Part shown: positions 578-14,982 of the stretch, in pieces
How the letters are laid out: every line of letters starts with the position of its first letter
Position numbering within the stretch: the first letter of the stretch is position 1
IMG/VR virus record: IMGVR_UViG_2547132281_000001
Reading direction: 5' to 3' (one strand)
Origin: a virus
Lineage: Duplodnaviria; Heunggongvirae; Uroviricota; Caudoviricetes
DNA length: 14,982 nucleotides
Program-made: the position numbers and the translations under genes
The notes under the pieces: model-generated
Told to the model about the DNA's origin: nothing
Seen by the model: only the letters and a program-made list of their open reading frames with translations
Database searches by the model: none

Positions 578-635
578 AAAAAGGGCGGCAGAGCAGTCAC
601 GGAGTAAAACTGATACCGCCAAACGTCACCAGAAA
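578..635 (-). ncRNA. dicF: DicF small RNA (ftsZ/manX-targeting sRNA of the dicB operon)
   Basis: Reverse complement of 578..635 reads TTTCTGGTGACGTTTGGCGGTATCAGTTTTACTCCGTGACTGCTCTGCCGCCCTTTTT, which matches the DicF sequence as I remember it, including the 3' GC stem and U-run. Positioned between ydfC and dicB as in Qin. Confidence 0.85.
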
Positions 636-5998: not shown

Positions 5999-6256
5999 AT
6001 ACAGCGAACGCCATTGGTTTAGTTGGATATTTACTGTGCCGGACAAAAACGGTTTGCGGGGAAATCTTAGTTAAATAGAATGACTGCGGGTGCTTGAGGC
6101 TATCTGTCTCAGGCATGAACACCAAAAGGCAGATAGAGAAAAGCCCCAGTTAACATTACGCGTCCTGCAAGACGCTTAACATTAATCTGAGGCCATATCT
6201 ATGCGACACATAGAGATTAGCCTCTTACGGACCGAAAGGTCAAGGAGAAGCAGGCT

Positions 6257-6391
6257 ATGAAGCAGCAAAAGGCGATGTTAATCGCCCTGATCGTCATCTG
6301 TTTAACCGTCATAGTGACGGCACTGGTAACGAGGAAAGACCTCTGCGAGGTGGAGGTCGCTGTCTTCACAGCTTACGAACCTGAGGAGTAA
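6257..6391 (+). CDS. hokD: Hok-family membrane toxin, HokD/RelF-like but 44 aa
   Basis: MKQQKAMLIALIVICLTVIVTALVTRKDLCEVEVAVFTAYEPEE. N-terminal 31 and C-terminal 13 residues match recalled HokD. SD AAGGAGAAG upstream. A 19-codon upstream ORF ends in ATGA overlap with the start. Confidence 0.8.
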   Translation: MKQQKAMLIALIVICLTVIVTALVTRKDLCEVEVAVFTAYEPEE

Positions 6392-9603: not shown

Positions 9604-9679
9604 GGCCCTTTAGCTCAGTGGTGAGAGCGAGCGACTCATAATCGCCAGGTCGCTGGTTCAAATCCAGTACAGCGCGCCA
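9604..9679 (+). tRNA. tRNA-like sequence with CAU anticodon (Ile2/Met type) but non-pairing acceptor stem; possibly degenerate
   Basis: D arm (GCTC/GAGC), anticodon loop CTCATAA, T arm GCTGG-TTCAAAT-CCAGT and encoded 3' GCCA are all present. Acceptor 5' strand GGCCCTT pairs with 3' ACAGCGC at only 3 of 7 positions. Confidence 0.45.
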
Positions 9680-10143: not shown

Positions 10144-10617
10144 ATACATATCTGGATTATCACCTGTTACGGTAAAAAGTTATTGCTTACTGTTTTTGTG
10201 AATGGCATTGCAGCAGCCGGATAATGTCAGTGCTGGCTGACGGTGTGCTGGTGGCGGGTGTGGTGGTTATTGCTTTCCCGTTGCTGAAAAAGAAAACGCC
10301 AGACTGTTAGCCGGGTATCAGTTAGCGGGAGAAATTTTTAAATACTTCACAATTCAGGCGGTTGACTGTTGTCTGGTTTGCGGGGAGTTTGTTAAAAGAA
10401 ACTGGCATGGTGAATCCCCCTGTGCGGAGGGGCAATCAGCGAGTAGGTATATGGGATAATCGCGGATTCAGGTGCTGGTACTGAATTCACCGGGAGGCAC
10501 CCGGCACCATGCACTTCAATAGATTCTCTCCACATTATGGATATTCTTTCAGAATATCCCACGCAGACTTTGTGTAAATGTTAACAAATGTGCGTTTTAT
10601 TTGATCTGATTCGCTGT

Positions 10618-13458: not shown

Positions 13459-13818
13459 ATTAATATTAAATCGGATTATTTTTAGCGCTGAATGTGAAAT
13501 TTAAATAAAAAGGACTCTTCCATGAGTCAAAATCCTTGAAATCTTAAGGGTAAGATAAAAGGTCATTAGACAGAATGACACGTTTTATTAATAAATAAAG
13601 CTATTGTTTCATTCGTGTGTTTTTCTTTACAAAAGTAATCCTTGCTATGGTTGGTTAATCATGCGTTAATGGTGTTCTGGTTTGTTACAAAATTATCTGA
13701 AGCAGTCATTGTTATAATTTTATTATTTGTACCTCTTGAGATTTCCTTGTTGGTTTTTCTCTCTGATATTTTTTTTCGGACCATTCTGCCCAAGGGCTAA
13801 CTTCTTCAAAAGGTAATA

Positions 13819-14034
13819 ATGATGTCTAACAAAATGACTGGTTTAGTGAAATGGTTTAACCCTGAAAAAGGTTTTGGTTTCATCACGCCGAAAGATGGTA
13901 GCAAAGATGTGTTTGTGCATTTCTCAGCTATTCAGAGCAACGATTTCAAAACGTTAACTGAGAATCAGGAAGTCGAATTTGGTATTGAGAACGGACCTAA
14001 AGGCCCTGCAGCTGTTCATGTAGTGACACTTTGA
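13819..14034 (+). CDS. cspI: Cold-shock protein CspA family (CspI-like)
   Basis: [71 protein letters not shown]; RNP motifs KGFGFI and VFVHF present. Preceded by about 360 bp of AT-rich leader. Start could be the second ATG at 13822. Confidence 0.85.
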
Positions 14035-14044
14035 GGTAGAAAAT

Positions 14045-14233
14045 ATTACAAACCATATTCACTTTAGATGCCCGTGTTGCCATGGTTCTCAGTATAGAAC
14101 ATCATCTTTTGATGTTTCTGACAGAAATCCTTTCGGGGCAAAATGTATCTTTTGTAAATCAATGATGATTACATTTGATAATATTTCACAATACTTAAAT
14201 GTTAGCCATCTGTCGTTAGATTTAAGAAAGTGA
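14045..14233 (+). pseudogene. Zinc-ribbon-like small ORF lacking a canonical start codon
   Basis: Open frame ...RCPCCHGSQYRTSSFDVSDRNPFGAKCIFCKSMMITFDNISQYLNVSHLSLDLRK* with CxxC..CxxC. Between the upstream in-frame stop and the motif there is no ATG/GTG/TTG, only ATT at 14045 and 14057. Start coordinate is nominal. Confidence 0.35.
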
Positions 14234-14241
14234 AAATGAAG

Positions 14242-14261
14242 GCTCCTTCGGGAGCTTTTTT
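14242..14261 (+). terminator. Rho-independent terminator
   Basis: GCTCC-TTCG-GGAGC hairpin followed by TTTTTT. Confidence 0.65.
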
Positions 14262-14387
14262 GCTTAGTGTCTAGTCGATGGATACTCACATATTACGGTA
14301 ACATTATGAAAAAAATGTAAGCGTACAGCCTGAACCGTCTGGTCAGAATCTGACAAATTAGACAAAGTGGTGTCCACCAAATAAGTA

Positions 14388-14789
14388 GTGGGAACCAAAG
14401 TGTCAGATATGCAGAAAAATGTGACTCCCGGCAGGCGAAAAGGCTGCCCTAATTATCCTCCCGAATTTAAACAGCAGCTCGTTGCTGCCTCCTGGGAACC
14501 CGGGATATCCATCTCAAAACTTGCTCTTGAAAATGGCATTAACGCCAATCTGTTGTTCAAATGGCGACAACAATGGCGCGAGGGAAAGCTGCTATTACCT
14601 TCTTCAGAGAGCCCCCAGCTACTTCCTGTGACTCTCGATGCAGCTGCCGAACAGCCAGAATCGCTCGCAGAGGACCCGGAAACCCTCAGTATCAGCTGTG
14701 AGGTAACGTTCCGGCACGGGACGCTCCGCTTCAATGGCAATGTCAGCGAAAAGCTCCTGACTCTGCTGATACAGGAACTGAAGCGATGA
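14388..14789 (+). CDS. tnpA: IS66-family accessory protein TnpA (orf1)
   Basis: 133-aa track ORF; GTG at 14388 or ATG at 14409 (MQKNVTPGRRKGCPNYPPEFKQQLVAASWEPGISISKLALENGINANLLFKWRQQWREGKL...). Stop overlaps the tnpB start. Confidence 0.75.
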   Translation: MGTKVSDMQKNVTPGRRKGCPNYPPEFKQQLVAASWEPGISISKLALENGINANLLFKWRQQWREGKLLLPSSESPQLLPVTLDAAAEQPESLAEDPETLSISCEVTFRHGTLRFNGNVSEKLLTLLIQELKR

Positions 14790-14982
14790 TCCCGTTACCT
14801 TCCGGGACCAAAATTTGGCTGGTTGCCGGTATCACCGATATGAGAAATGGCTTCAACGGCCTGGCTGCGAAAGTACAAACGGCGCTGAAAGACGATCCCA
14901 TGTCCGGCCATGTTTTCATTTTCCGGGGCCGCAGCGGCAGTCAGGTTAAACTGCTGTGGTCCACCGGTGACGGACTGTGCCT
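14786..14982 (+). CDS. tnpB: IS66-family TnpB (orf2), 5' part only
   Basis: Hand translation MIPLPSGTKIWLVAGITDMRNGFNGLAAKVQTALKDDPMSGHVFIFRGRSGSQVKLLWSTGDGLC... matches the conserved IS66 TnpB N-terminus. Runs off the window end. Confidence 0.8.
   Translation, partial: MIPLPSGTKIWLVAGITDMRNGFNGLAAKVQTALKDDPMSGHVFIFRGRSGSQVKLLWSTGDGLC

Follow-up and report, generated by a model that had tools for sequence, protein, structure and literature searches.

The open reading frame that follows cspI in this prophage is read here, with a probability of roughly 0.9, as ynfQ, the Qin-prophage paralogue of ymcF: a functional, ATT-initiated gene of 62 codons that encodes a four-cysteine zinc-ribbon microprotein, its translation being possibly coupled to that of CspI. 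Existing annotation and publications already cover both the gene and its start at ATT. This is therefore no new gene, and nothing here is new for E. coli biology; the pattern that ties the start codon to the adjacent csp gene goes a little beyond the existing annotation. The window, as we call the whole stretch of 14,982 nucleotides that was analysed, is a Qin-like lambdoid prophage with dicB/DicF, dicA, dicC, hokD/sok, rem, a DUF968 gene, RusA, an antiterminator, tRNA-Met and a lysis cassette (holin (essD/essQ)-ydfR-rrrQ-rzpQ), which is followed by cspI-ynfQ. The name ynfQ stands in Table 1 of VanOrsdel 2018 for a different ORF of 37 aa between ydfJ and ydfK; we follow the current K-12 record, in which ynfQ is the ORF after cspI. 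Coordinates of the features are collected in Table 1.

Table 1. Features annotated in the window, in order of position
Feature	Position	Strand	Basis
DicF sRNA	583-634	-	Rfam/ARAGORN scan
sok antitoxin RNA beside hokD	6088-6259	+	Rfam/ARAGORN scan
tRNA-Met (CAT), close behind the gene for the Q-type antiterminator	9605-9679	+	Rfam/ARAGORN scan
STnc100 sRNA	10376-10566	+	Rfam/ARAGORN scan, 114 bits
cspA-type mRNA thermoregulator: 5′ UTR, cspI and start of ynfQ	13664-14080	+	Rfam RF01766, 107.4 bits vs gathering score 78, full model 1-428
cspI, CspI of 70 aa; a further ATG one codon upstream at 13819	13822-14034	+	ORF list; RefSeq of the 100% identical locus L001, 1623-1835
TGAGG, cspI stop fused to the ynfQ Shine-Dalgarno core	14032-14036	+	sequence; conserved AGG; T(A/G)AGG with a 9-10 nt gap in 52 loci
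ynfQ CDS, 62 codons and TGA, ATT start, zinc-ribbon, YmcF-like	14045-14233	+	Pfam, RefSeq, K-12 b4724, start-codon survey
ynfR remnant, MKAPSGAFLLSV and stop, 12 codons vs 21 in K-12	14237-14275	+	sequence; RefSeq "too short", pseudo, in identical genomes
Intrinsic terminator of the cspI-ynfQ transcript, 9-bp stem, UUCG loop, U6	14238-14261	+	RNA fold
ynfN, first 11 nt (ATG AAA AAA AT), cut by an insertion sequence	14306-14316	+	alignment with intact ynfN; L001 annotation
IS66-family (ISEc8-like) left end, inverted repeat GTAAGCGTACAGCC, tnpA 14409-14789, tnpB from 14786	14317-14982	+	

The original prediction had described an open frame with two CxxC pairs, followed by a strong terminator and lacking an ATG, GTG or TTG on its upstream side, with ATT codons at 14045 and 14057 and a GAGG at 14033-14036 as candidate initiation signals, and all of these features were retraced in the DNA. 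From the TGA at 14024-14026 the frame runs through CAC TTT GAG GTA GAA AAT to the first ATT, through ACA AAC CAT to the second, and on into CAC TTT AGA TGC CCG TGT TGC; the Val codon at 14036 is GTA, and the first canonical start in frame is the ATG ATG at 14162. Its translation (...ITNHIHFRCPCCHGSQYRTSSFDVSDRNPFGAKCIFCKSMMITFDNISQYLNVSHLSLDLRK), with the motifs CPCC and CIFC, ends at the TGA at 14231-14233, and a hairpin with a U-run follows. The GAGG overlaps the cspI stop (TGA, 14032-14034) and lies 8 nt ahead of the ATT at 14045, and the cspI stop itself is on the same strand, 10 nt upstream of that ATT. Shine-Dalgarno and ATT are both present at ynfQ, RefSeq and K-12 annotate the same ATT, and initiation itself is predicted from these. 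As an annotation check the locus is instructive, as an ORF with no canonical start would be missed by most gene callers.

The product of the ORF matched the Pfam family PF23641 (YmcF-like) with an E-value of 8.5e-34 and 116 bits (gathering score 27), and because of this match the ORF is not a chance frame. The alignment spans profile positions 1-62 of 62 and begins at the Ile of the ATT at 14045, residue 7 of the 68-aa query. NCBIfam returned sub-threshold matches only, and PHROGs only a marginal match to a primase zinc finger. A megablast search against complete E. coli genomes reported thousands of copies, with at least 30 genomes 100% identical over 13700-14316. In such identical genomes (e.g., L001) the RefSeq CDS corresponds exactly to 14045-14233 of the window, is 62 aa long and bears the name ynfQ, its product being given as "cold shock small protein YmcF" or "cold-shock protein." K-12 MG1655 (NC_000913.3) has the gene as b4724, with an ATT start, directly after cspI in the Qin prophage. 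There the order cspI-ynfQ-ynfR-ynfN-gnsB, the 62-codon CDS, its ATT and the TGAGG upstream are as in our locus, while the proteins, 94% identical, differ by R27M, V53A, H55R and R61K (window to K-12), and the window has damage in ynfR, which carries a premature stop, and in ynfN, which carries an IS66-family insertion. The protein search yielded 131 homologues at E ≤ 1e-3, almost all of them from Enterobacteriaceae, and all 120 among the matches listed carry PF23641. The label "ynfN-like" under which the ORF had first been placed is wrong: YnfN is a separate gene, the next one downstream, the family is YmcF/YnfQ, and a BLASTP comparison of the ynfQ product with the YnfN of locus L001 gave no alignment at E ≤ 100.

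The closest relative is the paralogue YmcF (b4723), 66-69% identical, whose gene likewise comes after a cspA-family gene and has the TAAGG, the gap of 10 nt and the ATT (L035, L049). It differs in being a chromosomal rather than a prophage copy, in having CTC instead of ATT as codon 5, and in its C-terminal tail. The csp gene upstream of ymcF in K-12 is one that we take to be cspG. YnfU (PF23499) and ECs_2282 (NF047912) are also small CxxC zinc-binding proteins with two cysteine pairs, but they belong to families separate from YnfQ, and the ECs_2282 model scored 17.7 bits against its cut-off of 37. YnfU is encoded in Qin as well (bioRxiv 10.1101/511675). In Shimwellia blattae (L090, 404-571, minus strand) a YnfU-family (PF23499) gene for a small zinc-knuckle protein and a CSD gene stand head-to-head with the ymcF homologue. 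This arrangement hints at a clustering of several small CxxC proteins around csp genes.

In 2017, D'Lima et al. (J Proteome Res 16:3722) reportedly identified YmcF and YnfQ by comparative proteomics as microproteins induced by cold shock. Detection by mass spectrometry, cold induction and mutational proof of the ATT start are said to be part of that work, and detection of the protein is reported for K-12. It is cited elsewhere for AUU starts in bacteria (PMC10191623), while the main text of Nakahigashi 2016 (PMC4909307) does not mention ynfQ. Two RNA-seq studies report co-regulation of ynfQ with cspI (PMC11228462; PMC11728337), the former listing it as "Qin prophage, cold shock induced", and a 2024 review of the y-ome still counts ynfQ as uncharacterised (PMC11551758).

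We surveyed the start codon in the DNA of the best 80 of at least 275 loci, taking one genome per species. At the codon that aligns with 14045, 60 of these 80 have ATT, 16 have ATG and four have ATC, and its first two bases are invariant. An AGG at positions -11 to -9 is nearly invariant as well in the 75 distinct sequences among 81 (the 80 loci and the window), while the neighbouring intergenic bases vary freely. The presence of ATG at the aligned codon in some lineages indicates that 14045 is the initiation codon, and the predominance and depth of ATT indicate that it is not a recent lesion. The second ATT, at 14057, was rejected as a start on conservation and Shine-Dalgarno spacing, because E. 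coli ymcF has CTC in its place and the Shine-Dalgarno is 20 nt away from it. Some database entries of 70-71 aa (P0007-P0011, P0015, P0036; e.g., a Citrobacter protein beginning MLWLYKGTV-ITNN) take as their start an ATG within csp, nine codons further upstream. As the true start is ATT or ATC, these are most likely starts mis-called by programs that require a canonical one.

The original prediction had left two readings side by side, a rare AUU-initiated gene and a start-codon pseudogene, and it is the former that the data favour. According to the pseudogene reading, the ATT arose by decay of an ATG that the ancestor had, leaving the frame as the dead relic of a small prophage gene. The 16 loci with ATG can be cited for it, as can the decay of the cryptic prophage, in which the neighbours ynfR and ynfN are damaged. 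Homologues with an ATG at the position of an ATT had indeed been named beforehand as a sign against a genuine gene; they exist, but they mark the start codon and do not indicate decay. ATT is the majority codon across many genera of Enterobacteriaceae and is found in the distant Dickeya too, the Shine-Dalgarno is kept at a fixed spacing, and the ORF is intact everywhere. In cross-genus comparisons pN is 0.03-0.15 and pS 0.45-1.0, synonymous change being saturated, with lower values between near-identical Escherichia/Shigella loci; the median omega, where calculable, is 0.063 (dN/dS about 0.06). Variation by codon position is 0.37 at the third, 0.10 at the first and 0.05 at the second. Strong purifying selection, together with the depth of ATT and its annotation as the start in RefSeq and K-12, leads us to reject the pseudogene as very improbable.

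F7, P10, C12, G14, Q16, R18, S20, D23, P29, G31, F36, C37, K38 and M41 are invariant in alignment A1, and C9, C11 and C34 are conserved in at least 90% of its sequences. The family core, HFRCPCCHGSQYRTS…NP.GAKCIFCK, with four candidate zinc-ligand cysteines, is present in the protein of the window.

The start codon varies with the presence of a csp gene upstream. Among the best 80 loci, 52 of the 64 that start with ATT or ATC are preceded by an intact csp ORF whose end is exactly 9 or 10 nt away and whose stop codon is fused to the Shine-Dalgarno (TAAGG or TGAGG); none of the 16 that start with ATG has such an ORF. The ATG loci include the Klebsiella oxytoca group and Raoultella, in which csp is reduced to a relic, Citrobacter sedlakii, in which a frameshifted csp runs in frame into the gene, and Silvania, which has no csp. 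Atlantibacter (two loci), also without csp, has ATT and then directly ATG. Pseudescherichia (eight loci) is one lineage that keeps ATT without csp; there a short upstream ORF, MKKGYYYY and a stop, ends over the start in seven of the eight. The pattern was then used as a prediction and tested on six further genera, all of which fit. Dickeya has a csp stop 11 nt upstream and an ATT start; Enterobacter, Leclercia, K. quasipneumoniae and Kluyvera, in which no csp lies upstream on the same strand, start with ATG; and in Shimwellia, with no adjacent csp, the called ATG lies five codons upstream of a retained ATT. With an adjacent csp (53 loci including Dickeya) the start is non-AUG in 53 of 53, ATG occurs only where csp was lost, and lineages without an adjacent csp mostly have ATG. 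Most loci have 10 nt between csp and the start, those of the Kosakonia type have 9 nt, and Dickeya has 11 nt.

The upstream ORF of Pseudescherichia reads ATG AAA AAA GGA TAC TAT TAT TAC TAA and overlaps the ATT start in L019, L021-L025 and L048, at about 1482-1508; it is absent in P. vulneris (L045). In the C. sedlakii locus (L012, about 1290-1690), the frameshift in the C-terminal part of csp leaves the frame stop-free into ymcF (…GPRGPHFKVTV-MTPHIHFRCPCC…), with an ATG start, so that this is a potential Csp-YmcF fusion ORF.

The pattern suggests, from comparison of sequences, that YnfQ translation is coupled to that of CspI, since wherever the start is non-AUG the csp stop lies at a fixed 9-11 nt from it. 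We keep to this wording because the csp-loss events are few and phylogenetically clustered, the coupling model resting on roughly 4-7 independent losses; the ATT that Pseudescherichia keeps without csp also speaks against the model. A different link between the two frames would be a CspI-YnfQ fusion made by programmed +1 frameshifting at CUU UGA G, a shift site like that of prfB. The window does have CTT TGA at 14029-14034, with the +1 frame, that of ynfQ, open from 14027. The last csp codon, however, is CTT, CTC, GTA, CGT or CGC depending on the locus, and the change of the gap among 9, 10 and 11 nt alters the relation of the frames; as neither is conserved, we rejected the frameshift, which seems to us even less credible than the pseudogene. 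There is in addition no Shine-Dalgarno-like stimulator 3 nt upstream of the CUU, and lineages without csp retain this N-terminus, the aligned codon being ATG there. Least probable of all is that translation is confined to the 23 aa from the ATG at 14162 (MMITFDNISQYLNVSHLSLDLRK), the sole ATG-initiated ORF in the ynfQ frame, as this ATG has no Shine-Dalgarno before it, the invariant residues from F7, P10, C12, G14, Q16 and R18 to C37 and K38 are encoded upstream of it, the tail after residue 45 is variable, and the Pfam model covers the protein from Ile1.

Returning to coupled translation from the ATT, we can outline how it might proceed. ynfQ would be the second cistron of a cspI cold-shock transcript that begins with the cspA-type 5′ UTR near 13664 and ends with the terminator at 14238-14261, and initiation at the ATT at 14045, with fMet, would use the GAGG that overlaps the cspI stop. 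Ribosomes finishing CspI may either reinitiate at the weak AUU or unmask its Shine-Dalgarno, and YnfQ output would then be a small, fixed fraction of that of CspI during cold shock. A stricter version, which we offer tentatively and regard as possible rather than probable, is that the AUU or AUC of YmcF/YnfQ is an obligate termination-reinitiation site, kept only while the stop of an upstream ORF lies within about 11 nt (csp, or the short upstream ORF in most Pseudescherichia) and replaced by AUG when that ORF is lost. If this is true, output of the microprotein during cold shock would be a small, constant proportion of that of the Csp chaperone. The comparative pattern offers a modest, testable lead on why a few bacterial genes keep AUU starts, and it bears on a possible dependence of microprotein levels on those of the upstream partner.

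The classical AUU-initiated genes of E. coli are infC, which encodes IF3, and pcnB, and in infC the AUU serves IF3 autoregulation. ynfQ shares with them an AUU preceded by a normal Shine-Dalgarno, a weak start that is presumably subject to IF3 discrimination. They are first or stand-alone cistrons, whereas the AUU of ynfQ lies 10 nt past the stop of a very highly translated one.

That cspI and ynfQ form one cold-shock transcript is indicated by the terminator scan, which found no terminator between the two genes, by the terminator that follows ynfQ, and by the thermoregulator that covers cspI and the start of ynfQ. The terminator consists of GAAGGCUCC-UUCG-GGAGCUUUU and U6, and a 51-nt segment folds at -15.1 kcal/mol (z = -2.15). 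A consensus terminator scanner called the hairpin at 14238-14261 on the minus strand only, but the plus-strand sequence clearly shows the T-run. A promoter scan reported no convincing sigma-70 site from which ynfQ could be transcribed independently. Folding of the initiation region of ynfQ gave nothing notable (z = +0.67) and so no indication that an RNA switch operates there.

We modelled the protein using AF2 with the family alignment. The core, residues 11-40, was predicted with a pLDDT of about 90 and strands at 17-19 and 32-34, and the tail was disordered. A Foldseek search with the model found no significant neighbour (best E 0.46), its weak top matches being zinc ribbons of TFIIE-alpha, PolD and eukaryotic/archaeal ribosomal proteins (eL43-type), and a sequence search of the PDB with YnfQ gave nothing significant. 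The zinc-ribbon assignment therefore rests on the CxxC…CxxC pattern and on the weak matches to TFIIE-alpha and ribosomal proteins. Metal binding by the CPCC and CIFC motifs is predicted, and we infer that the metal is zinc; a 2026 review modelled YnfQ as a rubredoxin-like metal site (PMC13348028). That YnfQ acts on nucleic acid or on the ribosome alongside the Csp chaperones in the cold is a suggestion in which we place low confidence.

Downstream of ynfQ the locus is damaged. The ynfR of K-12 encodes a cold-induced small protein of 21 aa (PMC6001520). In the window ynfR is shortened by a TAT-to-TAG change; its ATG is 3 nt past the ynfQ stop and its frame crosses the terminator hairpin. The junction between ynfN and the insertion sequence reads ATG AAA AAA AT/GTAAGCG, the slash marking the boundary. 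In the element, tnpA at 14409-14789 is as in RefSeq, and the longest ORF starts with the GTG at 14388. None of the complete E. coli genomes of the collection has the ynfN/IS66 junction, as no record covered at least 80% of 14100-14982. Two other copies of the ISEc8-like element also follow A-rich sequence.
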